39,884 nt of DNA from Atractiella rhizophila (taxonomy: Eukaryota): positions 18,018 to 57,901 of the forward strand of contig MU271474.1 of assembly GCA_021432655.1 (NCBI GenBank). The letters are read 5' to 3'. Positions 7,951 through 39,884 of this stretch are shown here, piece after piece. Position 1 is the stretch's first letter. Each line of letters begins with the position of its first letter. The notes beneath the pieces were generated by a model, which worked only from the letters and a program-made list of their open reading frames with translations, was not told where the DNA came from and made no database searches. The position numbers and the translations under genes were made by a program.

Positions 7951-8557
7951 GCAAAGACTTCTCACTGTTTACTGTTTTTACTGAAGACAGCGGCAAAAGC
8001 AAGGTCCATCACGCACGAGGGACACGATTCCCGCACGAGCCGAACGAGGGCTTCTATTGGTTTCTTTGCTCCATGATTCCAAGTACACCATTTTCCGTAG
8101 CTCTAAGGCTCTTCAGACGCTTCAAGCCCTTGTCCGTCCAGCACTGAGCCTAGCACAAAGCCTTGCCGTGAATCTTTCAGAGGTCACTCAGAGAACAGAA
8201 CTTGACCGGCGGTCGGGGCACAATATTCAAGGCTCACACTTGCGAACACGATCCAATATCCGTGTTGTGGGAATGACCCATACCAGCCAGAACCTTAGAT
8301 AGGGCGGGAGATAGAGACGTGTGCAAGTGTCAACTGGAACGGGAGAAACCCATGGCTCCTCTGCACTGGCGGGGGACTTGTGTTACTTCAATTAAACAAA
8401 AACGCACGTTTGCCGGCGTACGGGCACAGCATGTCGCCAATTCCACCCACTACAGACCCCACTTCATCGTTTAACCCGAGCTTCCATTTGACAGCTTTAC
8501 AGCACCTATCCTTGGCACTCCACCTCTCACTGCACTCGTGAGATGTTGACGTTGAAT

Positions 8558-9483
8558 TAGGGATGGCTATCGGAGTCGAATCGTACCAGCTACGCCGGGT
8601 CCGATGGCCAGTCATGTATCGATCGAAGACAAAAATGGACCACGACTTACGATTCGATACGAGTACGGCTCCCAAGGCGTATCGAATCGCCAGCGTGTGG
8701 ATTTTACGACTACGATACGATACACGATTCCATGCGCACGTTTTTGGGGGAACGGCACGAATAGTAAGGTGTTCACATCACTCTCAGCTGCATGTGCTTA
8801 CAGTCTTCAGCCCCATGGCTGCTGTCCGCCGCCAGCATATAAATCCTCACTATCTTCTCCCCGTTGACGTCGCGCCACCATGGCAACACTGGACATTCTC
8901 GGGCTAGGAAAAAGGTCAAGGACTTCAGTGGATATTGCGAAGAGGAACAACGAGGATGGGACTGCACTTAGCCAGTCCAAGAAGCGAAAGGATGAGGAGT
9001 CTGAGTGGGTCTTCTCTCCTTACGATGGACGCTTGTTGATTGACATTGCACACAGACACCAAAAGATAGCGGAGTTCGAAGCCATGCAAGAAGTCGATCA
9101 TTACATGAAGCAGCCACAACTCCCTGCTTCAGTCATATCTTCGAATTGCACAAGGTTCAATCGACTGCCTCGCTGCCTGCATGTTCTCGGATGGCAAGAG
9201 ACATACTCTCCATCCCTGGTTTGTCCTCTGCCTCTCCTCTGCTATGCTTAGATTTGATAACTTCGAAGGGTGCGCTGTTGGTGTGGAACAGGTATTTTCA
9301 GGTGGAAGGGACACAATCAGCATCTGAAGACATCGTTTAAAGCCCTCCACTATTCGTCTGCTGATCATTACGAAGGCTAAGCTTAGGTTAGATCGAACAA
9401 GAAAGAGGATGGAGCTGTTGAGGAAGCTGGAAGAAGCTGAAAAGATGCACGAGATGCAGGTTCTGGCCGAAGCACAGAGCTGA
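8558..9483 (+). mobile_element. Internally deleted hAT transposon relic: left terminus plus degenerate C-terminal dimerisation domain
   Basis: TAGGGATGGC at 8558 resembles hAT TIRs and is followed by CGAT/ATCG-rich subterminal repeats. Spliced reading gives SRMARDILSIPG-CAVGVEQVFSGGRDTISI*RHRLKPSTIR (hAT dimerisation motif) with in-frame TGA at 9325-9327. Confidence 0.8.
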
Positions 9484-9520
9484 ATTTTGTCTTTACCATA
9501 ACCATCTTGTATTTCATTTC

Positions 9521-12500
9521 TTGACCGTCTGTCCATGGCTTCTCCACGATTACAAGGTCTTGGAAAAACCAATTGGGATCCGTGGAGCTTGGAGATCTAG
9601 GGGACAGGCTGTTGGAAAAGGGAACCTTAAGATCATATTTTTCCTCGAGGACGGGAAGACGAGCAAAGGAATTATTCGAAACGTTTACTACGCTCCTGGA
9701 CTCGGCGTCAATCTCATCTCCTCAAAAGTTCTCATGCAAAATGGAGTAGTCTTCGGAAACGATACGGAACGAGTTTATCTACACACTTCGAATGGAGAAA
9801 GGTTCGGGATCGCCCATATTGGTGATACCCTAATCACACTCCAGGCGAGTTATCTACCTGCATCAGCACCCCTCTCCAACGAACACACAACCGTTCCTCA
9901 TACGTCTTTTATCGCAGTGCCTCTTCGTATATGGCATCAACGTCTAGCACACCCCAGCAACGAACGACTGCGACTAGCGATTAAAAATGAAATTGTGTCT
10001 CCCTCACATGTACAGGATAGCTGCAATGCATCCCTTTTAGACTTGACATGTGCAAGAGGGAAAGCTACGTACGGAAGGAGTAAGGGACCTGCGAAGATTA
10101 GAGACCATAGACCGGGGAGGACGTTGGGATACGATACATGGGGTCCATCGACAGTTGCGAGTATACAAGGATTCCGATACGTTTTTGGCGTCGTCGATGA
10201 GGCGTCCAGGTATATGATTGTAGGAGGAATGAAGCTCAAATCCGAGGCACCATCAATCTTGGACGGGGTCAGAGCAGCTATCAAAAGGGACCTTGACGTA
10301 GACGTCCGTAAGATACACCACGACCAAGCCATGGAATTCATGTCGCTTGCAATGAAAAATTGGTGTGACAAACATCAAATTTCAAACATGAAGACCATGC
10401 TGTATGCACACGATCAGGGCGGAATGTGGGAGCGACAATGGTATACTCCTTTCAACATGGTTCGATGTCTCCTCCTCGACTCCGGACTCCCTTTGTACCT
10501 TTGGTATGAGGCGTTGAAAGTTGCCGTCCATATGAAGAACATTATGCCTACGAAAGCGAACGAAAGAAATCAATCACCCTACGAAAAGTTTCATGGAAGA
10601 AAGCCTGATATGACGCACATCAGGGTATTTGGTTGTCTCGCTGCAGTTACCATCATGCCTGAGCAAAGGGATTCGAAGCTATTACCCCGAGCAAAGCTGA
10701 TGTATTTCGTTGGATATGTCCCTGACGGTTACGGATGGCAATTCTGGGATCCCGCAAGGCGGACAATAGTAGAAGGCAAATCAGCTGGATTCTTCGAAAA
10801 TAAGTTCTACTCAGAAAGAGGCTATCAAGAAACAGAGAGAATACGGAACCTGGAGCCTGACGATTTCTTTGACATGCTGATACCACGGAGCGATAAGGAA
10901 GAGGGAGAGAAAGGGCGGATAGAGGGAGAGCTGGGTGGACAACGTATAAACACAACCGAGATGGAAGTGGACGATGTTCAAACATCAAGTCCTGTGGTAC
11001 CTGATACACCGGAATCTCCTACACTGTCAAGAAAGCACTTAGACAAAACTCAAGTGGCAGTAGAACAAGGGGGAGAACCAGCTACCACCGATACGTTAGA
11101 ACCTCCAGAAGGGGACCCCTCGTTTGTCCAAGATCGAGTTGCGGAAATCGAAGCATCCATACGGAAGGCGAGGGCCCACGAAGAAGAAATTGCGAGATTC
11201 TCCCCTCAACGACAACAACGGCTGGGGAGAGGAATACGTCGTGCAGGGCAGAATAGGTGGGATTACAAGAAACTTCACGAGCGAGGTCTATACTACGCTC
11301 AAGTGTACGGAAATGATGAAGTCGTCGCACCTGCAAGGGAACTGGCGGCGGAAGTGAAACGAAACCCATCAGTCTACAAGGTTACGCTTGAGGACGATAC
11401 GGACAATTATGAAGACCACGAAGTCTACTGGACAGGCAGCATCGATGAACCAACGTTCAAACAAGCGATCGCTGGACCTGACCGCGATAAGTGGTTAGCT
11501 GCGATGGTGGTGGAGATGGCAGCGCTCGAAGAGCGAGGTCTATACTACGCTCAAGTGTACGGAAATGATGAAGTCGTCGCACCTGCAAGGGAACTGGCGG
11601 CGGAAGTGAAACGAAACCCATCAGTCTACAAGGTTACGCTTGAGGACGATACGGACAATTATGAAGACCACGAAGTCTACTGGACAGGCAGCATCGATGA
11701 ACCAACGTTCAAACAAGCAATCGCTGGACCTGACCGCGATAAGTGGTTAGCTGCGATGGTGGCGGAGATGGCAGCGCTCGAGCTAATGGGGACGTGGAAA
11801 GGTGGATTAAAGGAGTTGCCTGAGGGGAGAAAGGCTTTAGGAGTTAAATGGGTGCTTACGGTAAAGCGTGATCCGAGAGGGGAGGTGATAAAGTACAAAG
11901 CACGCCTTGTGGTACGAGGGGATCAGCAAAAGGCAGGCCTGGACTACACGGAGACTTGGGCACCAACCGTGCGGACTGCATCTGTCAGAGCAGTACTGTC
12001 CATCTCAGCCCAAAAAGGGTGGGTCCGGCGACAATTCGACGTCAGCAACGCTTTCCTGAATGGCGATCTCGAAGAACAAGTATTCGTTAAACAGCCACCC
12101 GGTTTCATCGACGAGGAACGCCCGAAAGGCGTTTACGAATTAGGGAAGGCGCTCTATGGGTTGTGTCAGGCAGGGCGACAATGGTGGAAGAAGATTCATG
12201 GAGTACTTACTCAGTTGGGTTTCGTACGGTCTACCGCGGACGAAGGCGTGTATATTCTGCATAAGGACGGCAACACCCTCATCCTCTGTCTCCACGTTGA
12301 TGATGGATTAGTCGTTGGAAACTCACATGCCCTTATGGACTCCATCTTTCAAAAACTAGGCGAATTCTTCTCCTTAAGGGCTGGAACAGCATCCGTGTTC
12401 TTGGGAATCCAGATCGAGGCAGAAGATGGATCCAGTATGGTCAAGATACACCAAGGAGGCTACGCTAGGAAAATAGTGCAGCGATACCTGGGGAACAACG

Positions 12501-13057
12501 TATCGCCAGTTCAGATGCCATGCGACTCCAACAAACGACTGTCCCCCGAAATGTCACCCAAATCTGCTGAAGAACGAGAAAGCATGCAACATATACCTTA
12601 CCGAGAGGCCGTTGGAGCACTCATCTACCTTACGACATGCACTCGCCCTGATATCGCTTACGCCGTCTGCGAGGTTGCGCGTTACTGCGATAACCCGGGA
12701 CTAGACCACTGGCATGCAGTCAAACGTATCTTTCGCTATGTCTCTGGCAGTCTAGATCACGGATTAGTATACGACGGATACATCTTCCCGCAACCATCAC
12801 TGGATGCGTTCGTCGATGCGGACCATGCAGCGGACCCTACGACGCGACGCTCTGTCTCTGGCGTACTCTTCCGGAATGCTGGTGCGGCGATCTCATGGAT
12901 ATCAAAACGACAGCTAAGCGTGGCTGTCTCCTCGGCGGAAGCCGAGTACATCGCCATGTCCATTGCCACTCGGGAGGCGGTATGGCTGCGCAGGCTGTTC
13001 TCCGACCTGGGATTTCCGCAAGTGCAGCCGATACTGATACGGGGCGATAATCAGGGA
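9521..13057 (+). mobile_element. Ty1/Copia pol fragment (protease C-terminal part, GAG-pre-integrase, integrase, RT, partial RNase H); no gag or LTR
   Basis: NVYYAPGLGVNLIS, WHQRLAH, DTWGP/VDEASR/DQAMEF/MWER integrase motifs, KYKARLVVRG, DVSNAFLNG, ALYGLCQAGRQW, HVDD, TRPDIAYAV, DADHA, SSAEAEY, GDNQ. Integrase precedes RT, as in Copia. Confidence 0.96.
11279..11782 (+). repeat. 252-bp in-frame tandem duplication inside Copia pol
   Basis: GAGCGAGGTCTATACTAC... starts at 11279 and again at 11531. The 84-aa block ERGLYYAQ...EMAAL is repeated. Confidence 0.95.
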
Positions 13058-14129
13058 AAGATCGAGTTGCGGAAATCGAAGCATCCATACGGAAGGCGAG
13101 GGCCCACGAAGAAGAAATTGCGAGATTCTCCCCTCAACGACAACAACGGCTGGGGAGAGGAATACGTCGCGCAGGGCAGAATAGGTGGGATTACAAGAAA
13201 CTTCATGAGCGAGGTCTATACTACGCTCAAGTGTACGGAAATGATGAAGTCGTCGCACCTGCAAGGGAACTGGCGGCAGAAGTGAAACGAAACCCATCAG
13301 TCTACAAGGTTACGCTTGAGGACGATACGAACAATTATGAAGACCACGAAGTCTATTGGACAGGCAGCATCGATGAACCAACGTTCAAACAAGCAATCGC
13401 TGGACCTGACCGCGATAAGTGGTTAGCTGCGATGGTGGCAGAGATGGCGGCGCTCGAGTTAATGGGGACGTGGAAAGGTGGATTGAAGGAGTTGCCTGAG
13501 GGGAGAAAGGCTTTAGGAGTTAAATGGGTGCTTACGGTAAAGCGTGACCCGAGAGGGGAGGTGATAAAGTACAAAGCACGCCTGGTGGTACGAGGGGATC
13601 AGTAAAAGGCAGGCCTGGACTACACGGAGACTTGGGCACCAACCGTGCGGACTGCATCTGTCAGAGCAGTACCATCTCAGCCCAAAAAGGGTGGGTCCGG
13701 CAACAATTCGACGTCAGCAACGCTTTCCTGAATGGCGATCTCGAAGAACAAGTATTCGTTAAACAGCCACCCGGTTTCATCGACGAGGAACGCCCGAAAG
13801 GCGTCTACGAATTAGGGAAGGCGCTCTATGGGTTGTGCCAGGCAGGGCGACAATGGTGGAAGAAGATCCATGGAGTACTTACCCAGTTGGGTTTCGTACG
13901 GTCTACCGCGGACGAAGGCGTGTATATTCTGCATGAGGACGGCAACACCCTCATCCTCTGCCTCCACGTTGATGATGGATTAGTCGTTGGAAACTCACAT
14001 GCCCTTATGGACTCCATCTTTCAAAAACTGGGCGAATTCTTCTCCTTAAGGGCTGGAACAGCATCCGTGTTCTTGGGAATCCAGATTGAGGCAGAAGATG
14101 GATCCAGTATGGTCAAGATACACCAAGGA
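13058..14129 (+). mobile_element. Second, degenerate copy of the same Copia pol segment (matches 11130-12457 without the 252-bp duplication)
   Basis: Begins AAGATCGAGTTGCGG as at 11130. Has a CAA>TAA stop at 13603-13605 and a 4-bp deletion near 13671. Identity ends at 14129. Confidence 0.95.
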
Positions 14130-15321
14130 TAGCTACATGCAAGTTCACCACGGCATTGGAAATTCCGGTACAGCATTAAAACCACACTATGCCAGCATTT
14201 GCCTTCTCCCTTCACGACATGGGCGAACCTCGCATGTTTAAGGGACTCGGAGTTCACGTTGGGGCTCAGCGCAACTTTGCAAAGCAAGCTGTGCCGTCAA
14301 GTAGGTGCTAAAGAGACTAGATGATGCATTCTAGGCTAACGGGGCTGGAAGCTTTGGTTGTCTGGATGGAGATGCTGTTAGTCGTCGCCTGCGTTCGAAC
14401 GTGGAAACTTAATCCTCGTTAACTCAGAACCGTCAGCCGCACCTCCAACAAAAGGCGGTTTGGATGTCAGTTATTGTTTAGTCAATCGTTCCCAAGCTAC
14501 GTGTCGACCTCAAACCAGTTGCAATGTTTCTTTTCAGTGGCGCTGCAACGGCCTGGCACTTGAGTAAACAACATCGTGATACCATAACATGGCAGCCCTG
14601 TTCCTAGTGCAGTTGGGAGTGACATGCAACACAAAGGAAGCATTGAAGTTGAACAAAGAGGCGAGTTGCTGAGGAGGCGCATGACAGTGACGCTATCTGC
14701 GTGCCTTGCAAGTGTACAATGAGTGCTCCGTCTCGACGAACATATGCAATCGTTTATCATTTAATGCATTTATGGAGTAAAATAACACAAAGGGGCAATG
14801 AAGAAGTGGTTAGTATAATCGGACACTGGTGTACACATGAGTAAAAGCTCGTGGATCAAAAGGCAGACAAGGACCTGGAAGTTACTCAGGGTGACCGAGG
14901 TGAAGGGACAAGGCGATTGTCCTAGTCGGAGGTTGGTGATTCATAGATGCTCGTGTCGTTAAGTCTTGCAAGAGAGCGGGGGTACTCCACTTAAGGAGAG
15001 CTTTGCCCGTTCGGTTAGTGAGGTTGAAGCGAAATCAGTACCAAAGTGGCGTTTGCCTGGTTTTCCTCCCAGTCTCATGGCATACTAGCTATACAGAACT
15101 TGTCCCATCCAATGGCCGAAGAATTGAAGTTTGGATCGATGCTTCTAAATCGGCCTGGCAAGACGGTAAGATTGAGTAAAGAAAAAAGACGGGGTGGCTA
15201 CAATGGAAAGACCCTTGTGTGCAATTTTGGTCACCAAAAAAGTGCTCCGAGACGTCTAAGTGCACACCAAACTGTTAAAAGATTGTTTTTGCATTGATAA
15301 CTCTGTCAAGCGAAAATAGGT

Positions 15322-16836: not shown

Positions 16837-17262
16837 ATGAAGGTGTGACCAACATCAACAGGAGAGGGCAGAACCATCAGAGTCCAACAAAGTCAAACTC
16901 CAAAGCAAACCAAAGACGAAACACTCACAGTGTAGCTTCTCCCTTCTTGATATGTTCACTTCCAACAGTAAATAACTAGGAGCAAGAGGGGGAGGAGCGA
17001 TAGTGGGGTGTGAGATGAGGGGTTTCACCAGAAGACAAGACTGGCTAGATCCTGTTTCGCTAAGGCTTCTTCAGTTCTGGTGATGGTGAGGGCTCTTTGG
17101 GAGGTGCTCTGGGTGGTTTATAAGTGAAGGAATAGGGATTACCCATCGCATCATGCAGAGTTGTTATCTGAGCTTCAGTGTACGCTGAGGTTCTTTCTTG
17201 TGTTTTCTTTATTCATTGCAATGTTGAGTCCTTATGTGTAAGGAGATAGGGTGGAATCTGGT

Positions 17263-18232
17263 CTACTAACAGTACTTTGGGGTTCAACCCCACCTCTTTC
17301 AGGAATGAGACCCAGGCTGAATCCTTGCCTCCTGGCTGCCCAGGGTACCACCCTACCTCAGTCAGGAACAAGATCCTGGCTACATACATCCTTGCCTCTT
17401 AGGCACCCAGGGTACAACGACCCTGACGCCGTTGGGAACAGGATCCTGCCTACATCCTTGCCTCCTCGCTGCCCAGCACGTGTAGAGGTGAAGATGGGAC
17501 TGAGAACCAATATTTCATGAAACTCAGCCAGGCAACTGCTTAAGAGTGATTATGAGCATGGACAGATTGATACCCTGCTAAACGTAGTGCAGGCATTGGA
17601 TGTAACTGTGAGCAATCGAGGGCCGCATTGTGTAGAATCAATTTGGTGTATACATGAACTTGAAAGTATGATCAAGATCAAGATAATGGAGCCCTTGAAA
17701 ATAGTAATACAATTAAAATAAAACATGTCAAGAATGATTTAAAAAATGTGACCAATTAAAGAGCTTGTTTTGAATCATTATGGTCAAATATGAGGATAAA
17801 CAGATGATCAATAATGGTTTTAGTGCCAATGAACATGATCATTGCTGAAACATTTTACAGGGCGACAGGTGCATGTTACGTTATTCTAAACCCTTTGTCA
17901 CTCTTACATCTACTAGTAATTGTAACCTGTGAGCGAGATTGTAAAACATGCAATGATGAGGGTTATTTGAAGGAACATTGTTTCAGGTGAAGCATATGGA
18001 GCTAGAGCACCTCTGTGGGAGTGATATATTATTTATATGGAAATTGCATGTATATATGAACTTTGTCGCCACATCCTCATTAGCCACCTTTGGTGATCAG
18101 CTAGAGATTAGAATGTTTGGAGCAAAATTGCACTTTCCACAGCCTCTACACCTGTGTCGATAACCTATCGACTGGTGACGTTTTGAGTGAAATTGCACTT
18201 TCCACACCCCCTCGACACCTGTGTCGATAGGT
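17263..18232. mobile_element. Non-coding repeat family A, internally deleted copy
   Basis: Starts CTACTAACAGTACTTT as at 27723. Has ~63-bp tandem units, then an AT-rich core aligning by eye with 28476-29110, then ~67-bp units containing GTCGATAACCTATCGAC. Confidence 0.85.
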
Positions 18233-21312: not shown

Positions 21313-24300
21313 ATGTCTACGAATCATGTCAAAGTGTTCAAAGTTCCTGAAAATGTCAAGGAAGCGAATCCGCTGGGCCTACGGATTCCCTGCATCGACA
21401 ATGGCGGCGTTGCCACTTTCTCAGCTCCGTACATGCTCGAACCCATCATGCGTCAAACCGCACATCTTCTCAACGTACCAGACGGCGAAGAGCTTCGACC
21501 ATGCGACGTCTTTGATCTCATTTGTGGAACTTCTACTGGCGGATGGATCGCACTTATGCTCGGGAGGCTGGGAATGACTGTTCGTCAATGCATTGCGGCA
21601 TATGAAGAGATCGTGCAAAACGGATTTCTAGAAGAGGATTCAATCTCCAGCAGCAAGTACGTGTACTCTCCGAAGAGGCTGGAAGAGACTTTGATCTCCG
21701 TCATCCAGCGACACACGCCCCCTCTCGAAGGCCCTGCGGAGACACTTCCTATGAAGGACCCTTCTGTGAAGGAAAGATGTAGGACGTTTGTCCTCTCTAC
21801 CTATGAGGCCACTGTTATCGTTTCCACGCAGATGCGCACCTACGATATCTCTGCTCCTGCCGCTCTATCCGCTTGTCCATACTTCGTCTGGCAAGCCGCA
21901 AGAGCTACCTCAGCCTGTCCTCCCTTCTTTCCTACTATGAGCGAGGATTCTACCGGCTACATCCAGCTGGGAGACAACAACCCTGCAGCAGTAGCCTTCG
22001 ACGAGGCTTTGCGAATTTGGGGACGCAGCAGCGAGATTGCCTGTCTTGTGTCTCTTGGTCCGGGCGTTGCACGGACTGTGAAGCTGGGCCACACTCGGGA
22101 TGATATCGAACATGCGTTGAAAGCGATAATCGCGGATTGCTCAAAGGTTTCGAATGCAGTGAAGGTGAAGATGCAAGATGGTGGGACGGGTCATTGCTAT
22201 CATCGATTCTCGGTTGATACATTCATAGAATTCAAATGGGGGGACTGGGAGCGAAAGGACGACATTGTAGGCTGCGCCAAGGCTTACATGGAAGCAATGA
22301 ATCATGAAGTGGCTGCCGCGGCTAGGTCGCTAGTGCAAGGTATTCTCCGTTACTGTGTATTGGTGCATGCTGATTTGCCCTTGTTCAGGCTATAAGGAAC
22401 GCATTGCTGTCCACAGGAAGCTTCCGCTACCTGATCCGGGAGCTTGTTACGGAAGAGGTGACGAAGTTACGGAGGCGCTCAACTGCATCCTCACTGACCG
22501 GAAGCATCTTGCAATAATCGGTGGCGCTGGCAACGGGAAGTCCACTGTAGCTCTACAAGTCCTGCATGCCAAGCAAGTCAAAGATGCTTTCACAACCACA
22601 GTGGAAGGTACGAGGCAAGATCTTCGGTTCTGGGCTCGATGCGATGCTTTCACTACATTTTCATCCCTCTCTACGAGCCTTTGCAGGGAGGTCTTCGGAA
22701 TAGCTCCTCTACCTGGCGAAAGTGACCTTGCTGCTATCGCACGATATTTTAGCGGCCATAAATGTCTCCTTGTGTTGGACAATTTTGAGACCCCTGCTGA
22801 GTCCGACAAGGAAAACCTGCAGCCATTCTTTCAAGCTCTTCTTTCTGCCAACGATCGGTTGGGTTCCATTCTGATTGTGGCGCACCGAGGACATCAAATC
22901 TACCGCGTGAACATCGCAGGAGGGAAGTTTCAAAAGTTGGTGATCCACGGCCTCAGCTACCCTGCTGCACTGGAATTCTTCAGGGAGGCGTACACCGGAG
23001 AGGAAGATTGCACAGAAGAGCTATTGAAGACTGTTTTCACCACATTGGATTATCACGCCTTGTCCATCAAGCTATTCGTTCTTCGTGCCAACGCAGAATC
23101 ACCAAAGACGGTCTCGATCTTGTTGCAGGAGTGGGAGGCTGTGAAGATAGGTGTGCTGTGGGACGAAGACAGTGACGAGACCCAAACTCTTGCAAAGTCG
23201 ATATCTTTTTCACTCAATTCACCTCGTCTTAAAATGCGCGAGGATATGTGCATGTTTATTCTTGCTCTCTTATCCTGGACCCCTCAAGGCCTTCTGGACA
23301 GTGACATTCTGGCTGTTGCCAGCAAGGCTAGTCTTCCTGCTCTGGAGCGACCTTATGTGATCATTAATGCGATTTTGTCCGTCGGACTTGCCGAGAATGC
23401 ATACGATACCCTGGCAGACTCAACACGATTTCGTATGCTGGCACCTATTCGTGAACACATTAATCACTCGGTAGTGCACTCTCTTCCTCCTTTCAGCAAT
23501 GCCGTTGCTTCATCCCTCCAGCCCATAACGGACGGTCTCATCGATATAGCTCGGGAAAATGTTCGACGGTATAAAGGTGACGGTCAACGGATAGAGTTGT
23601 TGACTTTCCGCAACAATTATCCAAACCTTGAATATGTTCTTCTAGCTGCTTTGGAACATCTGCAAGACCCGAGAATTACGGTCCATTTTCTAGTGGAAAT
23701 CTGGCAGTTTCTGTACCAGCAGTCCCTCCTCTCAATCAAATTACTCCAGCAGGCTCAGTCCATCGCGAAATCTATAAGTTCTCCGCTGGAATGTACAGCT
23801 ATATTGACCAAGGCTCTGGGGCTCGCATTCAGACATCAGGGGACTCTAGAACAAGCCTTGACACAATTTGAGGAGGCAAAGCTGCTCTATGTGACAATGG
23901 AAGATCGGCAGGGGCAAGCCCACTGCATTCGGAGCATGGGGGAGATCGAGCAGCATCGCGGGCGGATGGAGGAAGCGCTGAAACGAGTCGAGGAGGCGAA
24001 GGAGCTGTATCTGAAGGTGGAAGATCAGCATGGGCAAGCCCACTGCATTTACAGCATGGGGCAGATCGAGCAGCATCGCGGGTGGATGGAGGAAGTGCTG
24101 AAACGATTCGAGGAGGCAAAGGAGCTGTATCTGAAGGTGGAAGATCAGCTGGGGCAAGCTCACTGCATTTACAGCATAGGGGAGATCGAGCAGTATCGCC
24201 GGCAGATGGAGGAAGCACAGAAACGATTCGAGGAGGCGAAGGAGCTGTATCTGAAGGTGGAATATCAGCCAGGGCAAGCTCACTGCATTTACAGCATGGG

Positions 24301-25414
24301 GAAGATCGAGCAGCATCACGGGCGGATGGTGGAAGCGCTGAAACGATTCGAGGAGGCGAAGGAGCTGCATCTGAAGGTGGAAGATCAGCTGGGGCAAGCT
24401 CACTGCATTCGGAGCATGGGGGAGATAGCGCAGCGTAGCGCCTGGATGGAGGAAGCGCTGAAACGATTCGAGGAGGCGAAGGAGCTGTATCTGAAGGTGG
24501 AATATCAGCCAGGGCAAGCTGACTGCATTTACAGCATGGGGGAGATCGAGCAGCATCGCGGGCGGATGGAGGAAGCGCTGAAACGATTCGAGAAGGCGAA
24601 GGAGCTCTACCTGAGGGTTGAAGATCAGCTGGGGCAAGCTGACTGCATTCGAAGCATGGGGGAGATTGAGCAGCATAGGGGGCAGATGGAGGAAGCGCTT
24701 AAACAATTCGAGGAGGCAAAGGAGCTGTATCTGAAGGAGGAAGATCAGCTGGGGCAAGCCCACTGCATTCGGAGCATGGGGGAGATTGAGCAGCATCGTG
24801 GGCGAACGGAGGAAGCGCTGAAACGATTCGAGGAGGCAAAAGAGCTGTATGTGACAATGGAAGATCGGCAGGGGCAAGCCCACTGCATTCGGAGCATGGG
24901 GGAGATCGAGCAGCATTGCGGGCAGATGGAGGAAGCGCTGAAACTAGTCGAGAAGGCGAAGGAGCTGTATCTAAAGGTGGAAGATCAGCAGGGGCAAGCT
25001 CACTGCATTCGGAACATGGGGAAGATCGAGCAGTGTCGCGGGCGTATGGAGGAAGCGCTGAAACGATTCGAGGAGGCGAAGGAGCTCTACCTGAGGGTGG
25101 AAGATGTTGGCGGTCAACTCAACTGTCTTACAGGCATGAGTTCCGTTTACACTCAAGACAAGCAGGGGATATCCAAGGCGATCAAGCTTCGCGAGGAAGC
25201 AGTCAATTTGAGTGGGACCGTCGGTGGCTACTACGAAGCTGTCAGCAGAAAGAACCTGGCCGAACTCCTCTTCCAATCGTCCCAGTTCCTCCGTGCGACG
25301 CAGGAAACCAATCTCGCCCGTCAGATTTACGCAGATTGCTCTGCCAGCTCCGATGTTGATGGTTGTGACACTCTGCTGCGGACAATTCAGCTCATTGAGA
25401 GTTTTCCTGGTTAA
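21313..25414 (+). CDS. NLR-like protein: patatin-like phospholipase, STAND (NB-ARC-like) NTPase and TPR array; exons 21313-22339 and 22389-25414, 1350 aa
   Basis: Patatin motifs CIDNGGV, FDLICGTSTGG, ARATSACP, NNP. Walker A GGAGNGKST, Walker B LLVLDNFE. Ten 40-aa TPR-like repeats. A 49-nt GT-AG intron (22340-22388, phase 1) fuses the two ORFs with no internal stop. Confidence 0.92.
23870..25105 (+). repeat. Array of ten 120-bp near-identical coding repeats (TPR) plus a partial eleventh
   Basis: GAGGAGGC(A/G)AAGGAGCTGTAT...GGGCAAGC(C/T)CACTGCATT recurs at exactly 120-nt spacing. Confidence 0.97.
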
Positions 25415-25646
25415 GACGTGTCATCCAAATAGTTTTGGTACTTTCCTTTCCCTTCACCTTGTGCAAGCAGACCTCCTGGTGCAGGATGTAACATTCTGCC
25501 TGAGCAACGCTGTCATCGTTATAAAATCGATGTTTCATTATGACCTGAAATGTAGACACAATCCTCCTGATACTCGGAAGGTTACATGCCTTTACGCGAA
25601 GTTGTGGTGGTTGCGCGCAAATAAGATTATGTTCTCATCTATCCAA

Positions 25647-25745
25647 CTACTAACAGTACTTTAGGGTTCAACCCTGCCTCTACTACTATTCCTTCATGAC
25701 GGAACTACTATTCCTTCGCGACGGAACTGTTCCGTCAGTCAAATT
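25647..25745 (-). repeat. Stacked repeat termini: 35-bp family A end followed by a partly duplicated family B end
   Basis: 25647-25681 is identical to 27723-27757. It is followed by ACTACTATTCCTTC..GACGGA twice and the palindrome GACGGAAC-T-GTTCCGTC at 25720-25736. Confidence 0.85.
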
Positions 25746-26089
25746 TGGCTGGGGAACGGAGTTAGGGTCAGGGCCATGGTGAGTCCCGTCAGCCCAGTCG
25801 CGAGGCTCTCACTAACGGAACTAACCTGACGGGACGGAACGCACCGTTGAGTCCCGTCAGCTCGGACGCGACGGCCAAATTGTCTCGCGAGGTTGGGATC
25901 AGCCCCGACATGAACTCGCTCAACATGCGAGGTTCATCGCGAGGGCGCCAAGTTCACTACCAGTCGCGAAGTGGGCACTTCGGGTCACTGGCTGGCTGTG
26001 ACGTGTGAAGTGCCTTCTAGTTGAAAGGTCAAGTTTGGTTCAGCGATGGGTTCAACCTGCGAAAGGCTGCTGTAGTTGAGAGGGAGCAG

Positions 26090-26540
26090 GCTCGCAAGAA
26101 AGCAGATGCGCGAGAGAGTAAACTCGTGAGACTGCAAACGTGAGAGAGCACACTCGCGAGACAGCAAGCTAGCGAGACAGTAAACCAGTGAGAATGCCAA
26201 CTTGTGAGACAGCAAACTAGCAAGAATGCAAACTAGCGAGACAACAAACGCGAAAGAGCAAACTAGCGAGACAGCAAACATGCGAGACGGCCAACGCGCG
26301 AGACAGCAAAACCTGCGAGACGGCCAACTAGCCAGAATGTGAGCTCGCGAGAATACAAACTCTGTGAGAGAGCAAACTGGCGAGATGGCCAACTAGCGAG
26401 AATGCCAACTTGCAAGCATGCCAACTCGCCAGCATGCAAACTCGCGAGACTGCAAACGTGAGAGAGCAAACTAGCGAGACTGCAAATTTGTGAGACTGCA
26501 AACTCGTGCAACTCCAAACTCGTGAGAGACCAAACGCGTG
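26090..26540. repeat. Degenerate minisatellite of (GC)GAGA(C/G)AGCAAACT-like short units
   Basis: Many imperfect short units such as GCGAGACAGCAAACTA and GCGAGAATGCCAACT. Confidence 0.85.
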
Positions 26541-26719
26541 ACGTGAATCCAAATGCAAGTTTGCAGCAGTCCTGGTTTCACAAATGCCAACAGGACTTTG
26601 GCAGAGCGGGACCGTCTTCGCTTCAGCACTTATGGTTTTGCTGAAGTAAGCACGAGCTTGTGAGAGTGAGACTGGCTTTGCATCTGCGCTGCCAGTTTTG
26701 CTGCAGTGAACAGGAGTTT

Positions 26720-27722
26720 ACCAGAGCGAGCCAGGCTTTGCAGGAGCGAAGTGACTTCGTCCAAGCAAGTCTGGCTGCACCCCAGCGAACTGCACTTCTC
26801 TTGAGCAAGCCAAGGTGCACTGGAGCGAGCCAGGCTTCGCAGGAGCAAACTGCACTTCGCCGGAGCGAGCCAGACTTCGCTGAAGCGAACTGGTTTCGCC
26901 GAAGCAAGCCTGACTTTGCTGCAGCGAACTGCACTTCACCCGAGTGAGTCTGCCTTCGAAGGAGCGAGCCTGGGCTTGCTGGAGCGAACTGACTTCGTCC
27001 TAGCGAGCCTGCCTTCGCTGGAGCGAGCCAGACTTCGCAGGAGCGAACTGACTTCGTCCTAGTGAGCCTGCCTTCGCTGGAGCGAGTCAGACTTCGCAGG
27101 AGCGAACTGTGCTTCGCTGGAGCGAGTCAGGCTTCGCAGGAGCGAACTTACTTCATCCTAGCGAGCCTGCCTTCGCTGGAGCGAACTTACTTCATCCTAG
27201 TGAGCCTGCCTTCGCTGGAGCGAACAGCACTTCGCTGGAGCGAACTTACTTCATCCTAGCGAGCCTGGCTTCGCTAGAGCGAACAGCACTTCGCTGGAGC
27301 GAGTCAGACTTCGCAGGAGCGAACTGTGCTTCGCTGAAGCGAGTCAGGCTTCACAGGAACGAACTTACTTCATCCTAGCGAGCCTGCCTTCGCTGGAGCG
27401 AGCCAGACTTTGCTGAAGCGAACTGGCTTCGCCCAAGCAAGTTTGACTTTGCTCCAGCGAACTGCACTTCGCTCGAGCGAGCCAGGCTTCGCTGGAGCGA
27501 ACTTACTTCATCCTAGCGAGCCTGCCTTTGCTGGAGCGAACAGCACTTCGCTGGAGCGAGCCAGACTTTGCAGGAGTGAACGGACTTCGTCCTAGCGAGC
27601 CTGACTTCGCTAGAGCGAACAGCACTTCGCTGGAGTGAGCCAGACTTCGCAGGAGCGAACTGACTTCGTCCTAGCGAGCCAGACTTCGTTAGAGCGAACT
27701 GACTTCATCCTAGCGAGCCTGC
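26720..27722. repeat. Minisatellite of ~20-bp units built on CTTCGC-TGGA-GCGA(A/G)C
   Basis: Dozens of variants (GACTTCGCAGGAGCGAAC, GCCTTCGCTGGAGCGAGC, ACTTCATCCTAGCGAGCC), many with an internal TTCGC/GCGAA inverted repeat. Confidence 0.92.
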
Positions 27723-29260
27723 CTACTAACAGTACTTTAGGGTTCAACCCTGCCTCTTTCAGGAATGAAATCCAGGCTGAATCCTTGCCTCCTGGGCACC
27801 TAGGGTACAACCCTGCCTCTGTCAGGAACAGGATCCTGGCTGGATCCTTGCCTCCTGGCTGCCTAGGGTACAACTCTACCTCTATCAAGAACAAGATCCT
27901 GGCTACATCCTTGCCTCTTAGGCACCCAGGGTACGACCCTGATGCTATCAGGAACAGGATCCCACCTACATCCTTGCCTCCTCGCCGCCTAGGGTACAAC
28001 CCTGTGTGTCTTACAGACAGGATCCTGGCTATATCCTTGCCTCCTAGGCACCCAAGGTGCGACCCTGCCCCAATAAAAACAGCATCACTACAAAACTGTT
28101 GTCTCTTAGTCGACCAGGGTAGAACCCTGCCATAGATAGGAATAACAATCCAGTCAAAATGTCATGTACATATAAACACTCGCAGGCACAGGCAATGTCC
28201 TCTCTAAGACATCTTAAAACACATATATTGAAATCCTTGCTTCATTGGAGAGCTTTGGTTCATACTTGGCATATATGTCCAATGAAACAAAGTACATTCA
28301 AAGTTGCAAAATAAATTTATAGCAGTGTAGAAATCTGTTCTCTGTACGTTATTAACGATAAGTGCAATTTTCGCAAAACTGCACCAGATCGATAGGTTAT
28401 TGACACCAGGTATAGAGGGGTCTCAGGGGTGCAATTTTGTTGAAAGTGGTCCATGTCGATAGGTTATCGACACCTCGTGTAGAGGGGTCTGAGAACCAAA
28501 GTTTCATGAAACGTGGCCAGGCAGCCGCTAAAGATTGGCTACAAACATGGATAGATTGATACCCTGCTGAAAGTAGTGCATGCATTGGATGTATACTTTC
28601 GCAAGCGAGGGGCTGAATTGTGTAGAATCAATTTGGGGTATATACAAACTTGAATGTATGAAAAATGATCAAGATGATGCAGCCGTTTAATGGTAATACC
28701 ATTAAAATGAAAACATGTTAAGAATGATTGAACAAATGTGAGATATTAAAGAGCTTGTTTTGAATCATTATGGTCAAACATGACGATAAACAGATGATCA
28801 ATAATGGTTTTAGTGCTAATGAACAAGATCATTGCTGAAACTTTCAGGAAGACAGGCGCATGTTACACTATTCTGAACGCCTTGTAATTTTTACATCTGT
28901 TAGTAATTGTAACATAAGTGTGCGCGAGATTGTAAAACGTGTAATGATGAGGGTGGTTTGCAGGAGCATTTTTTCAGGTGAAGCATATGGAGCTATAGCA
29001 CCTCTGTGGGAGTGATATATCATTCATATGGAAATTGCATGTATATATGAACTTTGTCGCCACGTCCTCATTAGCCACCTTTGGTGATGAGCAAGAGATT
29101 AGAATGTTTGGAGCAAAATTGCGCTGTCCACACCCCCTCTACACCAGTGTCGATAACCTATCGACTGGGGACGTTTTGAGCGAAATTGCACTTTCTACAC
29201 CCCCTCTACACCAGTGTCGATAACCTATTGACTGGGGACGTTTTCAACAAAATTGCCCTC
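27723..29260. mobile_element. Non-coding repeat family A, longer copy: terminal hairpin, 63-bp tandem array, AT-rich core flanked by inverted 67-bp modules
   Basis: 63-bp units start at 27738, 27801, 27864, 27927, 27990 and 28053. Inverted modules lie at ~28360-28490 and ~29112-29257. Homologous to 17263-18232. Confidence 0.85.
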
Positions 29261-32849: not shown

Positions 32850-34100
32850 TGAGTTCAATGGAACATGTAGAATAATCGAAGAGGAAGAGGAAGAAAAAGG
32901 CAGCACCGAACATGCAATACCACAATGCGGTCCTCAATGGCAGTTGTCTCCTCCTTCAAAAAATCGAACGAGTGCCTAAGATCGTCTTGGCTGTGTTCTG
33001 CTTGACCCCTCTCAGGAATCATATCAATGGATAAAGGCAGCACAGAGCACCAAAACGTAGTGACTCTCCTTTCGTGACCGCTTTTGCAATGCCCTATGCA
33101 CACAAATCACAACCACACTTGACTATTTAATGATGCGCTATACCTTGCTATTCCAGACATTGAATTGCCCCAAGCCCTGATCCATGGTTCGAGAAGCGGT
33201 TGTAGGAAAACCGGACGTGCACAGAAACTGACACCAGGGCTTTATGGACCGGACCAGTATTGAAATGGGTGTATGTGACACGCTCCAAAACCTGCAAGAA
33301 TGTCAGCTAGTGACCTGGGACAGGAAGAAAGCACGAAGCGGACCTTTGCGCATCTTGAATTGGCACATCAACTTGTGCTTATAGCAGTATATTGATCAAT
33401 GTGTGCTGAAAGTAATGTTAGATCTGCAGCTGCATAAAGAGGAAGGAGAAATGATAATTACAAAGGCAAACTGCAGACCGCAGGCGAGCCGGAAAGAGCC
33501 TTGTAACGTATGAGTCGAAGATGTTTCGTGAGGCGGAGAATTTCTCGCACAGGATGAAAGGCGTTTCTGATTTCTTTCTCTCCTGTGTTGTAAGGTCCAC
33601 CTATGCGCTCTGGAGATAGCTATATTGAGCGCTTTGGCAGTAAAGCAACATTCAGGCCTGATAAGATAGAAATGCTTCCAATCCGGAGGAGAGCATGGAC
33701 AAAGTCATGATGGAACTAGGAAAGAAGCGATCTCTGAAGGCGGATGAGTGTCGCTGTTCTCCATCTTTACAGCAATGTCCATCACAAAAGTAACAGGCTA
33801 TTACAGTGAGGAACGTCAACCTGCCAAGTGAGGCAGACTTACAGCATTGTTTCTCGTTCTTAACGTAAACACCTTCTTCTACCAATCCACAATTTTTATC
33901 CCCCCCAACTTCGTCATTTCCTTCACCCCCCTTGCCCGCCCCATCCATCCATCGTACCTTCTCCTTTTCTAGTACCCTCGCATCCACTTCAACTTGAACT
34001 ACCCACCATCCTTCAACTTTAATCGTGACCGCCGTGTCGTTCCTGTTAGGACGTGAAATGCCCAGAATCAGCCTACTCATGTCCCCGTATCTAGCAAACA
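32850..34100 (-). other. Possible intron-rich gene or gene relic of unknown function
   Basis: Several minus-strand intron-like segments (e.g. GTCCGC...GCTGACATTCTTGCAG near 33291-33343) between short open frames. No domain recognised. Confidence 0.25.
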
Positions 34101-34987
34101 TCAGCATCTCGATGAAATGTGACTGTCTCTTCAATGACGTACCTTCGAATCCCTGAACGGCTCTCATCACACAGATACCGAGCCCACTTCATCCTGGGCA
34201 GTTTTCTTTCAACAAATCTGATATTCACACTCTCCACTCCTCGAGCTCTCCCATACCTGCAATACCTTCAAACTGTTGGGCATCTTCCCACCCCTGTATA
34301 GGGAACAGTCTTACACGTCTATCAACAGCCCAGTGGAGTGTTTTGTGGGCTACAACACTGAAGTCCTGAATGAGGCAAGACCGGTGGGAAAGGCAGAACG
34401 ATTGCAACATTGGACCCGTCTGATCGACATCAAAAAGATCAGATCAAGAGCGGCCCCTACCTCAAATTAAGAGCGTCGCTTCCATCATGGCAACAACAAC
34501 AGGAGGTTATATCTTACACGATCAAGCCCCCAAAGGAAGGACAGTTTGTGTCTGCTCTGACTGCGTCGATCCATCAGACCCTCATTGAGGTCTCCCTCAA
34601 ATGCGAAAAACAGAATATGAGCATCGACGCCGAGATGAGAAACGTAAGCAAGATGAAATAGATCATCGTGGACGCAATAATCGAGATAGAGAAGATCTAG
34701 GTACGGGCAGTACATTCGTAGATTCCCGATCTAAACAATTGGCTCTTAGATACACTACTGTTCGAAAGTCATTTTCCTGGTCAAAAGGATTGGAAGACTT
34801 CGAAAAATGTTGACGTTCTTTCTGCTCGCAGACATGCCAAAAGTGTCTCTCCAATGAGAGCAGGTTCACGACGTCGTTCACCATCTCCTCAGAAAGGAGG
34901 GCAAGATCCCGAGAACGGTACACTTTCATATGTTCATCAATGTTATGCTAATAACATATCATAGTATTTCAGAATCAGAAAAACGGA

Positions 34988-37809
34988 ATGGAATCCCGGA
35001 TCATTTTCCACATCTACCTCGCTTTCATGGGTTGGCTGACGCTTTGTGCAGGCATTAGCCGCAGAAGCACCTCAATCGTGGCCAAAGTCGGGAAGATATT
35101 GATTACACTTGCCCTTGTATTAGGTTTCCTTAGTGGAATTTGACTGTTAGACGATATTTCTCCTGCCCGCGCCACACGTGACGCCGATATTTCACATCTA
35201 CGCGAGGACGCATCCGAGTTTCTGTCTTACTTTCCAACGGATTCTCGATCCATCTACAAATGCCTAGGAATTGAACCTTCATTCGAGTGCAGATTGTGCT
35301 GTCCCAAATACAACGCAGGATATTTGTAATCGCAAAGAGACTCGGGAGAACCGTTGTTCAAGAAAGACAGGAGAACCATCAAGGGGACTGCACATTTGAA
35401 GATCCCTCGAGCTCTCTACTCAACACAATCTTTCACATCTTGGGTTCAATATTTCCTATCCCGTGCTGACGTTGAGGATATGTTGGAAGAACCCTTTCGA
35501 CCGCGCAGACAGGATGGAAGGCATCGTGACATTTATGATGCTCCAGTATGGCGAAACCTCAAAGATGCGAATGGGCGACTGTTTACCTACAAAAAGGAGA
35601 ACTTAGTTTTTTCATTTTTCAGCGACTGGTACAATCCTTTCACGATGAGAATCGCTGGAAAACAGCGTTCAACCGGTATTTTTATCTTCTTTTGCTTAAA
35701 TTTACTGATCAATGCTCGATATCGTCCTGAGAACCTATTCGTTGCTGGGTTAACGCCTGGAGGGAAAGAGCCTACAGTTACTATGATCAATAACATTCTT
35801 GAACCTATTGTGCAAGATCTAGAAATTTTGCAAGAAGGCAGAGTATTTCATATGCCCACCAATGCCACACTATGGCTCGTGTTCTGTGTTTTGCTTCTTG
35901 TGCTCATTGGGGACATCCCTGCTTTGCGGAAAGTTGCTGCGTTTGCTTCTCACAGTGCCAGCCTTTGTTGCTCCTTGTGCAAGCTACACGAAAGACATTG
36001 ACAGGTTGGACATCGAGAGATGGGAGCCACAGACGAAGGAAGAACACCTTGTCGGAGCGGATCTCTGGCACAAAGCACAAACTCACAAGCAAAGAGAAGC
36101 AACTTTTAGAAAGTACGGGGTGCGGTACTCAGTTTTGAATCTTCTCCGATATCGAGACCCTGTTCGTCACACAGTCCTTGGAGTGATGCGTAATGTCTGT
36201 GAGGGCTTGCTGCAGAATCATTTTCGAAGGCAATGGGGCATCAACGCTATAATGAAGCAGAAGGGCTCAAATGCTGGTGCCAACACTGAACTGCCGCCAC
36301 CACTGGGATCCGATGAGGATGATGATATTTCATTGGACGATGATGACCTGGACATGACAGCTGAAGTAGCTGCTCTGGAAGAAGAACGAGAGGAAGCTGC
36401 ACTTGCAAATGCTGGTCCACCTGTTGACCTTGCTGCTGAAAGGTCCAGGTACCAGCACACTGTCGATGCTAATTATGACGTTCCAGAAGGTGCCGGATCA
36501 GGGAGACGGCATCTACGCCAGAAATCTGCAGCTCCTGCGAATGCCCCAAACCCTCCGAGTGCATCACATTTATTGGATAGCAACTCAGATTTTGATGCAG
36601 AAGCGGAGGAGAACTATTCTCCTTCAGAAGAAGAGTCTACTGCCTGGAGGGATTCAACCCGGAAACAAATGAGGCCCCGGGCATCTGAGTCCAAGGTTTC
36701 TTGCATCTTCCAACGAGCCGAATTTTCGCGTCTCCGAGAATCTATGGACGAAGTCCAAGTCCCTTCTTGGGTGGAACGCTTGCCTTCTGATCTCGGCTAT
36801 GCCAGTACTGGAAGACTCAAAGCAGACGCCTGGTTTAATCTCTATACAATATTTTTACTGTTAACATTAGGCACCTTATGGCTGCAAGATTCTTCAAATG
36901 AGAGAAACACAGCTCTGTTCGACAACTTTGCAAATCTCGTCACGGCAGCTAATATTGCCGGCGCATATTCCGTAACGGTTATCGAGGCAGACCAGTATCT
37001 TAGAGCCTACAAAGCTTTTCGCCAAGGCCTCAAAGCTCTTTTCCCACACTCAAAAGCTGTGCCTAACCACCACTTTGCTATGCATATAGCTGAACTTCTC
37101 CAATATTGGGGCCCCCTGATGTATGTTTCAGAGTGGCCGGGAGAGCGCGTTATTGGCACTTTGGAAAGTCACTGAACAATGGGAAACTTGGTAAGACAAG
37201 CTTCTAACAACCTGTTCAAAGCACTCAACATGCTTCAGACAATATCGATATCACAAGTTTACGTCAATATTGTCGAAAGGCACGGTTGCTTGCTTGGATG
37301 AAGAGCAACAAAGATAAGCTTGGAGATTCAGCTGCTTCATCCTTCTGCTTCTAGAACAGCCAATGAACGTCTTGATAGATCGCGGTCCAAGTGATCTACA
37401 GCTCACGAAAGACTTATCATCCCTTGCGACTAAAGACGAATTCACCAAATGTGGGAAGGAAGCAAAACCTTTAGCTGACACAAACTACCTTGCTCTTTTG
37501 CATTTACTTGCTGTCACTCGACCAGCGGGAGCCTACAATTTTATGAGCACTTCCAAATCCTCCGCCTCCAAAAAGAGCGCCTACGACCGATTCCTACACC
37601 CTGAGTGCGATATATTTCTCGATTCGAGAGGAAAACCCGTCAATTCAGTACCTACAACAAGCACAAGGGCAACAGTGGCACCATCTTTTTCGATGAAACG
37701 GGACAGGAGAGGTGGGGACAGATTTCTTCTATTTTTCAACACTTCTGGGAGGACCACTGAGAGTGTGGGCGTCACTATACACTTCTCGGAGCTTCGCAAT
37801 TATTTCTGA
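34988..37809 (+). mobile_element. CACTA/EnSpm (Tnp2-like) transposase pseudogene
   Basis: PTDSRS...CCPK, DIYDAPVW, FSDWYNPF, CLNL...RYRPENLFVAGLTPG, GDIPALRK, CSLCKL, RYSVL...VMRN, GRLKADAW, PNHH, WPGERVIG. Several frameshifts. Confidence 0.9.
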
Positions 37810-37814
37810 GGATG

Positions 37815-38275
37815 AAAGACCTTTTGGATACTCTGATTCTGATTTCGCTGCCAGCCACGATTGAAGGTCTATTACGGGAATGCTCTTTACACGCGCTGGA
37901 AGAGCGGTAATTTGGAAGAGCAAGAAACAATCTCTAGTGTCATTAACAGAGGCCGAATACGTTGCATTATCGTCAGCCACAAGAGAAGCATCGTGGATCG
38001 GGAATCTCTTCAAGGATCTTCAAATCCCTCTCGCTTCTCCCATCACTATCTATGGTGACAACCTTAGTTCCCATCAACTTGCCAACAACCACATCTTCAG
38101 GCAACGAACCAAACATATTGATGTCCCATTCCACTATACATGTGAATGTGTCTCTAATCGAAAAATCGAACTTCAATACATGGATACGAAGGACCTTCCA
38201 GCAGATATCCTTACAAAGGGAGTAAGCAAGATGAAGTTGGAAGGAGCAATGAGTAAAATTTGGGATGATGAGTGA
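37815..38275 (+). mobile_element. Copia RNase H 3' fragment
   Basis: GYSDSDFA, WKSKKQ, EAEYVA, YGDNLS, RTKHID, ADILTK. In-frame TGA at 37862-37864. Confidence 0.92.
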
Positions 38276-38634: not shown

Positions 38635-38987
38635 CCCTGCAGTGCAAGTCCCATTGCATTTGTAGCTCACATTTGCAGGTGAAGTTATTTCTCTTAAGTA
38701 CAAATGAAATGTATTCTAATCGCTTTTGTGGCTCGCATTTGTAGTGCTTACAGATCCGTATCTCATCAATATCCCCCGCAGATCACCAAACCAGATCTTG
38801 TTTAGAATAATGTCGTTGTGGTCGTAGAGCTCAGAAGAAATAAGTTAGAAAGCGGAAAGAAGCTGTGGGAAGTGAAGAAGCCGAAATGGTGACGAACTTC
38901 GAGCTCCAAAAAAGGCAAGCACCGCTTCCAGACAAGGAAGGTGTTGCCGCATTTTGTGTGAGCGTGAGCTCAATCGACCACAATACA

Positions 38988-39884
38988 ATGTCGAATCAGA
39001 TCGAAACCTACAGGTTGTTTTTTCAACTGGTTCAGCCCGATCCGCAGACAAATCGTATCGTCGGCACAGCGAGCTCTGTCACAATTTCTTCCGGTCAGTT
39101 GGTCGAAGACTTGGAGAAGGAGATTCGTGCCAACATTCGCGAAAGGCACCCTGCAATGTGCAGTCTGGACGATTTCGTATTGTGGGCGCTTCAACCAATG
39201 TTGCCCAGCAAGGAGCAAGCCTTTCTGAAGACGATCAAGTTCCCCTCCGAAAGATTGAAACAACTCGACCCTACTTTTCCGCTATCGGATTATTGGGAAA
39301 AACCCCCCGCAAATAGACACCTACATGTTGTGGTTGAGTTAGGTTTGCCTTCTCAAGAACGTCCACCCTCTCGTAAGGATTCCTTGGTGATCCTTCTTCC
39401 ATCTGATCTGTTTGGTAGCCTGGCATCATCACGGTAGTCTGGATCAGTATCAATCCCGCGCACGTATCAAAGCATTGACTAAAGGATCATTCTCTCCCCA
39501 CTCGCTTCTCGAACAAAATCACATCTTCCAGGTCGCTGTCCCTCCCACCAGGCCTCCCAACTACCAAGAGGATCCTAACCTCGCAACCCTCCGCCAAGCC
39601 AAGGCCACTTTGGCCCAACAGTTCCAGCTTCCTCCAGACCCTGACGCTGCTACACTCGCAATCGGAACGTCGCTTCAAAATGATTTTTTTGGCGGTACTG
39701 TCAAGAAAGGCCGAAGAGCAACAAAGGCCGAGCTAAGCCATTATCATCATGTTTCCGCCGTCGAGGTACCTATGGAGCGATTTCTGGATAACAAACAGGC
39801 TTATTTCAACTGGACCTACCTGATGCCTGTCGCGAGCGAGCTTTCTCGCCAGAGATACGGACTGATCAAAGTGTCCGAATTCGT
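38988..39884 (+). CDS. Crinkler (CRN)-like protein with N-terminal ubiquitin-like domain; continues beyond window
   Basis: YRLFFQLV...VTISSGQLVEDLEKEI...FVLWAL...LDPTFPLSDYWEKPPANRHLHVVV matches the CRN N-terminal pattern (LxLW, LxP..LS..F/W, HVxV). A downstream frame from ~39490 is open to the edge. Confidence 0.8.

Follow-up and report, generated by a model that had tools for sequence, protein, structure and literature searches.

Outside Podospora, where the proposed mutagen is RIP (repeat-induced point mutation), the source of new sensor variants in fungal nucleotide-binding oligomerization domain-like receptors (NLRs) is a question raised by a locus of Atractiella rhizophila in a stretch of 39,884 nucleotides (assembly GCA_021432655.1, contig MU271474.1, positions 18,018 to 57,901), hereafter the window, in whose numbering coordinates are given. 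The window carries a gene on the forward strand (21313-25414) whose 3' end is formed by an array of tetratricopeptide repeats (TPRs). An earlier note on this DNA had proposed that deamination at CpG supplies new repeat variants, that recombination shuffles them, and that the array is thereby a built-in generator of specificity. In this basidiomycete we measure a CpG signature that is concentrated in the sensor repeats and there reaches the level of a transposon, and this is the new element. The explanation that we consider fairly probable is an NLR sensor made of repeats whose internal conservation is high (HIC), in which units exchange sequence, CpG sites decay at a transposon-like rate and the surface tolerates the changes, the resulting variation being a by-product of the methylation of repeats.

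CpG transitions and unit exchange in the sensor array

The array (23867..25105) comprises ten complete 120-nt units of 40 codons and a partial eleventh; the end agrees with that given in the earlier note, which had let the first unit start at 23870 instead of 23867. Tandem Repeats Finder (TRF) reports a period of 120, 10.4 copies and 86% matches. Pairs of units differ at 4-22 positions per 120 nt, in line with the internal identity of about 80-100% reported for HIC repeats (PMC12222747). Pfam recognizes TPR_12 over the array (E=2.8e-55), and in the structure model (pLDDT 89.6) two-helix units form a regular solenoid, with Foldseek matches to the TPRs of TSK/BRU1, LGN and OGT. In the model, helix A consists of unit residues 14-30, the loop of 31-33 and helix B of 34-40 plus 1-10. 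The codon patterns listed before are all present: along the units codon 22 gives R,Y,Y,Y,R,Y,R,R,R,R (CGG or TAC, but CGA in unit 7), CGG/TGG/CAG occur at codon 33 and CGC/CAC/TGC at codon 31, the latter with AGC, AGG and CGT as well, and codons 19 and 15 are H/D and Q/H/L/P, respectively. The window and 20 further loci fetched from the same gene family gave 231 in-frame units, of which 204 are distinct, once any unit containing N or a frameshift had been dropped. Later tests used 17 arrays, the near-duplicates L034, L040 and L048 having been removed, as well as locus L031; the latter was left out of the groove, synonymous-ratio, column, codon-model and subfamily tests and kept in the unit comparison and the TpCpG counts. 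That variation concentrates at a few codons did not hold for the window array alone: counted per codon, its 37 distinct amino-acid alleles over 40 codons show no clustering beyond a uniform distribution (variance/mean 0.91, P=0.67). Yet variability at these positions recurs in 15 other family arrays (Spearman 0.56, p=2e-4).

Within the window array, C>T/G>A alleles are found at 13 of the 18 consensus CpG bases versus 12 of the 53 other C/G bases (p=3e-4), and when only synonymous changes are counted at 5/5 versus 6/26 (p=0.003). Expressed as synonymous CpG versus other transitions, the ratio is 8.6x in the window array (11/34 vs 7/185) and 4.7x in the 17 family arrays (147/369 vs 283/3367), as compared to 2.5x in the non-repeat parts of the NLR genes (36/274 vs 47/906) and 1.8x in ordinary haplotype-like pairs (26/413 vs 39/1090, three totals summed). 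A Transposase_21 element in the window, used as the transposon control for these ratios, gave 7.0x (7/45 vs 5/225). The claim that CpG change exceeds the background is thus correct with respect to ordinary genes, but not with respect to a transposon of the same genome. Taking alignment columns as replicates, the six CpG sites have a mean of 0.79 and the 36 others of 0.43 (p=0.001). A codon model points in the same direction: its CpG multiplier is ~9 in the window array, where it beats a multiplier of 1 by 18 lnL, versus ~2 for the non-repeat part of its subfamily, and ~6 for 175 family units versus 1.5-2.5 for non-repeat parts. As the synonymous CpG sites on their own favour a multiplier of 8-16 in the window array, the term is not merely absorbing selection. 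The multiplier of the array exceeds that of the non-repeat part in two of three subfamilies.

The units also exchange sequence, and the array shows the concerted evolution that comes with it. The repetition of YVTMEDRQ of unit 1 in unit 9, and the YQP common to units 4 and 6, were both confirmed. The first corresponds to a 69-nt tract (23888..23956 and 24848-24916), the longest in-register identical run, and is likely a conversion or unequal-exchange tract; its YVTM tag occurs in 2/231 family units, both of them in the window array. The second is a 61-nt tract (24220..24280 and 24460-24520) in units that differ at 4/120 bases. The tract shared by units 1 and 6 was significant (p<2e-4), and that of units 1 and 9 (p=0.017) was lost after 45 comparisons. 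Incompatible pairs of informative sites number 85/276 in the window array, a count to which recurrent CpG change could also contribute. Elsewhere in the family, units 2 and 3 of locus L032 are identical to its units 7 and 8, indicating a duplicated block, and the colinear contigs C222 and C352 (96.5% over 12 kb) carry 15 versus 19 unit slots with identical units shifted, both having probable assembly indels and an allelism that is unproven. None of the units of the window array is identical to any unit in the 20 other arrays, and a database search found no second allele of the array, the closest proteins being 38-46% identical (33 matches, 8000 candidates scored).

These observations can be combined as follows. 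CpG sites undergo C>T/G>A change several times more rapidly in the array than elsewhere in the gene, at about the rate of a transposon in this genome. We infer that the array is handled like other repetitive DNA and methylated at CG, deamination of 5-methylcytosine being the mutagen. Purifying selection removes changes in the core: at Ala codons 4 and 37 the silent GCA is common and GTG almost absent (GCA 92, GCG 79, GTG 2 and GCA 88, GCG 74, GTG 2, respectively, among the family units). At the surface Arg codons 14, 22, 30, 31, 33 and 40 it tolerates them, and these codons consequently switch between R, H, Q, C, W and Y. In fact, these six CGN-rich codons form the most variable group, with a mean heterozygosity of 0.47 as compared to 0.19 in the 34 remaining codons, and where they do not encode Arg they read mostly CAN, TGN or TAN. 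Unequal exchange would then shuffle the variants, and GC-biased conversion may restore CpG. The latter is hinted at by the GC content at fourfold sites (GC4), which is higher in the arrays than in the non-repeat parts in 11/11 genes (0.58-0.79 vs 0.43-0.50) and decreases as arrays become more divergent (rho -0.70 over 17 arrays that are not independent). An altered binding groove could be used by selection, yet would be a by-product rather than a separately evolved device. A candidate methyltransferase is encoded in the assembly: a Dnmt5-like gene (C5 methylase + SNF2) lies at 250-5860 of locus L052 on contig C133, with a 98% identical copy on C483, and its product matches PDB 7R76 (E=3e-136), deposited as 'Rad8', which we take to be the Cryptococcus Dnmt5. 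Rad8 has been grouped with DNMT5, and the combination of DNMT1 and DNMT5 has been linked to CG methylation in basidiomycetes (PMC7862722).

A number of points weigh against this explanation. In one subfamily (L038/L037/L043) the array has no clear excess, the best multiplier being 3 versus 2-2.5 with overlap. The synonymous signal is carried by six CpG columns, in arrays of shared ancestry, the controls are small, and the ORFs of the ordinary genes were picked mechanically. The array sequence was taken solely from the assembly, in which the sister locus L031 resembles a chimeric consensus, and the codon model was a custom one with a coarse grid that treats recombining units as a tree. The rise of incompatibility with distance in the window array was not significant (p=0.075). 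Moreover, 10/37 amino-acid variants are one CpG transition away from another observed codon (positions 14, 30, 31, 33, 34, 37 and 40), and 27/37 are not direct CpG transitions, including those at positions 15, 19, 22 and 26. H/D, Q/H/L/P, E/Q/K and D/Y are all non-CpG changes, and the CGG/TAC toggle is a three-base difference and no deamination product of CGG. CpG deamination as the source of variants is therefore upheld by the excess over ordinary genes and over the non-repeat part, and falls short for most of the variants, the toggle included. Across the family codon 22 is CGC 67, CAC 48, CGG 23 and TAC 18 times out of 204; since CGC and CAC are the commonest, TAC most likely arose via CGC>CAC>TAC, and it would predate the CGG of the window subfamily or have been imported beside it.

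A more far-reaching form of the methylation scheme, which we regard as doubtful, is that CG methylation is confined to the repeat arrays of functional NLR genes and acts as a local mutator that turns surface Arg codons into H/Q/C/W/Y, GC-biased conversion reloading the CpG sites, so that sensor diversity would renew itself in a lineage that lacks canonical RIP. If true, some of what has been described elsewhere as 'positive selection' on HIC repeats would be context-dependent mutation.

Selection and the position of the variable residues

The strongest competitor, which we nevertheless consider rather improbable, is an adaptive specificity generator: selection would keep CpG-bearing Arg codons at ligand-facing sites, methylation would mutate them, recombination would shuffle the products and diversifying selection would spread them. 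The position of the variable residues gives it some support. With the TPR register taken from the TPR consensus, unit residues 19, 22, 23, 26, 29 and 30 correspond to TPR positions 2, 5, 6, 9, 12 and 13, the set reported to contact ligands (PMC1261162). Across the family, the groove positions predicted from this register vary more than the remaining ones (0.38 vs 0.21, p=0.0095); in the window array the difference is marginal (0.36 vs 0.21, p=0.06). Residues 15, 19, 22, 26 and 30 lie on one face of helix A in the window (p=0.046), but the helix-face test was not significant family-wide (p=0.29). Thus, of the idea that variable residues are placed on the solenoid in a meaningful way, a tentative lean towards the groove face is retained and a family-wide face preference is not. 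Moreover, variation at groove codons 15, 19 and 26 does not involve CpG, and the CGN-rich codons 31 and 33 lie in the loop of the model and 40, like 10, on helix B, hence outside the groove. Arg is encoded by CGN in 29/31 codons of the array versus 32/45 in the non-repeat part, as expected if such codons are kept, but these counts descend from one ancestral unit. The raised GC4 described above would likewise be expected if conversion reloads CpG.

Further evidence concerns selection itself. In the window piN/piS is ~1.0 in the groove, 1.5 in the loop and 0.33 elsewhere, and a codon model blind to CpG found omega>1 at codons 22, 30 and 40 in the 175 units (dlnL 12.8), in favour of the adaptive generator. 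Once CpG mutability was modelled this candidate positive selection was lost: with the CpG term, allowing omega>1 brought a dlnL of 0.0 for the 175 units and no more than 0.2 for the window array, in a test on paralogous units instead of alleles and of limited power. Site means in the CpG-aware model do not exceed 0.75 family-wide; in the window array the highest is 1.1, at codon 15. The disappearance of the gain argues that hotspots and relaxed constraint suffice to explain the hypervariability, and the specificity generator of the earlier note is not borne out. This outcome has a wider bearing, as a context-blind dN/dS can call CpG hotspots positively selected, which is relevant to the published scans of HIC repeats.

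Genome-wide bias and RIP-like mutation as improbable alternatives

Less likely still is that nothing is specific to the array and that the signature reflects the ordinary CpG bias of the genome at large, enhanced by errors of assembly, by the small number of sites and by old polymorphisms common to the arrays. Indeed, a CpG excess was seen nearly everywhere it was tested (1.6-2.7x in haplotype-like pairs, 2-3.3x in the patatin domain plus nucleotide-binding domain, NBD), one subfamily lacks the array excess, and indels of the kind that assembly error typically produces occur in several of the paralogous arrays. However, the window array is free of indels and stops, and the excess persists at matched divergence (6.1x in the array vs 2.0x in the NBD) and among singletons alone (CpG 16/59 vs CpH 51/551). 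Furthermore, when conversion was simulated with a multiplier of 1.8 or 3, a ratio of >=8 was reached in 0/60 runs in each of six settings, and recombination therefore does not explain the CpG excess.

Atractiella we take to belong to the Pucciniomycotina. A RIP-like, homology-dependent mutator of the kind reported for this group, where repeats undergo TpCpG hypermutation (PMC3318451), would replace the passive deamination of 5-methylcytosine and agrees with a weak TCG bias over all sites of 18 arrays (TCG 65/98 vs other NCG 63/122, p=0.04), but it is very unlikely given that the preference is absent at synonymous sites (23/31 vs 15/21, p=1.0), a mismatch with the reported pattern, as well as in haplotype-like pairs and NLR flanks, and that CpA and CpT are not above CpC. 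With the CpG/TpCpG hypermutation described for basidiomycete transposons in PMC3318451 the array thus shares a C>T excess at CpG in repeated DNA; it differs in being a coding sensor array under purifying selection that has no synonymous TpCpG preference.

The receptor, its family and its surroundings

The gene is predicted to encode a protein of 1,350 aa, stop-free and assembled from two ORFs. Exon 1 (21313..22339) specifies a patatin-like N-terminal domain (PF01734, E=2.8e-12; alignments to CapV and iPLA2-beta). The putative GT-AG intron of 49 nt (22340..22388) joins the two ORFs in frame, and a gap of similar size occurs in intact paralogues. The non-repeat part of exon 2 (22389..23866) comprises a STAND NTPase and a helical linker, with a Walker A motif GGAGNGKST at 22520-22546, a Walker B motif LLVLDNFE and matches to NACHT (E=2.6e-5), AAA_16 and nSTAND6 that are all under the curated Pfam cut-offs. 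The array is followed by degenerate C-terminal capping helices and the stop codon (25106..25414), as judged from reading frame and structure model. Like the array, these features are all on the forward strand. Effector domain, STAND NTPase and C-terminal repeats in one inferred protein constitute the fungal NLR layout. The array is thus, on this sequence evidence, the sensor part of a patatin/STAND/TPR receptor of a known type, and the domain order together with the identical tracts bears out the view of it as an NLR sensor with signs of unequal exchange. In the patatin domain the GTSTG nucleophile motif (GXSXG) is kept and the oxyanion motif reads DNGG. The DGG motif with the catalytic Asp is missing, as YVDGG of CapV aligns to YIQLG with a gap of 2-3 residues, and it is present in 0/28 readable copies of the gene family (two more being unreadable). 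Therefore the domain is probably not an ordinary phospholipase but a pseudo-phospholipase effector. Contigs of X1 and X2, two DNA sequencing runs from one sample, match the non-repeat part, most long pieces without differences and one with three other letters. At 22959 and 23012 the window has A and the contigs of both runs have G, no contig having A, which points to a close second allele or to assembly errors.

Architecture and shuffling are ordinary and already known, and the scheme of hypermutation plus shuffling is already in print for Podospora (PMC4986451), together with HIC TPR repeats, positive selection on the concave face, polymorphism of repeat number and RIP as a possible hypermutator. 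For HIC NLRs a C>T/G>A excess, termed 'methylation- or RIP-induced', and exchange of TPRs between genes have likewise been reported (PMC13449251), and for WD40 repeats the alleles and the need for long reads (PMC12222747). The Atractiella array resembles the TPR repeats in the NB-ARC NLRs of Podospora anserina (Pa_2_10340, PaPnt1; PMC4986451, PMC13449251) and the HNWD WD40 repeats (PMC12222747) in being a near-identical tandem sensor, in variable positions that may lie on the concave face, in candidate differences of repeat number within the family, in unit exchange and in a C>T/G>A mutational excess from which the variants are proposed to arise. It differs in having units of 40 aa instead of 42 aa and in that positive selection is not retained after context correction. 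The excess lies here in a CpG context and is RIP-like in Podospora, the term 'CpG' occurring 0 times in the main text of PMC4986451 and PMC13449251. Moreover, it is here strongest inside the array, whereas the measurements in PMC13449251, as described there, were made with most of the sensor domain removed. PLP-1 of Neurospora crassa and het-z of P. anserina, allorecognition NLRs of the patatin/NB-ARC/TPR type, have the same order of patatin, STAND NTPase and TPR. The patatin domain of PLP-1 is reported to be essential for cell death (PMC10197012), whereas that of Atractiella lacks DGG. No ligand or linked SEC-9-like partner was identified for the window gene. A literature search that did not cover most subscription papers yielded no earlier account linking the variation of fungal NLR repeats to CpG, nor any of this gene family.

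The family is large: the 5' part of the gene has at least 43 matches on at least 30 contigs, itself included, with the best 40 of 109 candidates scored, whereas patatin NLRs usually number one or two per species according to PMC4986451. The closest database proteins mentioned above are likewise from A. rhizophila. Because the assembly contains haplotype-like duplicates, such as C133/C483 at 97-98%, some family members may be alleles; C79 and C300 could not be shown to be allelic. Locus L031 (C759, 3797-6645) has a 5' part 98% like that of L032 (C98), while the last 2.5 kb before an assembly gap are 100% identical to window 25420-27903. Intergenic exchange between L031 and the window gene was considered and rejected, as the junction, an indel-rich blend of unit and cap beside the gap, reads as a blended consensus. 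L031 is probably a chimeric consensus or misassembly, and possibly a real recombinant. Both L032 (6487-8003) and L031 (7358-8994) have a second, far more diverged 40-aa TPR array ~250 bases downstream of the NLR, no NOD being matched in between. Window positions 1-5263, a tyrosine phosphatase region, are 97% identical to C397:6124-11392. The NLR of C397 is 72% identical to that of the window and starts 1 kb after the block, the corresponding distance in the window being 16 kb; this NLR could be an allele that has diverged strongly.

The surroundings of the gene are rich in transposons. A copia-type retrotransposon (8550-14130) contains an ORF of 1,287 aa (RVT_2, rve), and stretches of 251, 400 and 927 bases are duplicated within the element at 97-99% identity; it is probably young, since its observed/expected CpG is ~1.0. 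The Transposase_21 (CACTA-like) element at 33826-37991 is 96% identical to C982, with a strong excess of CpG transitions. A multi-copy non-coding element (25700-29250 and 17260-18230) is built of 16-, 20/39/59-, 63- and 67-nt tandem units, and part of it recurs at 17488-18229 (86%). Finally, the ORF at 38844-39437 encodes a Crinkler N-terminal domain (PF20147, E=1.5e-7).

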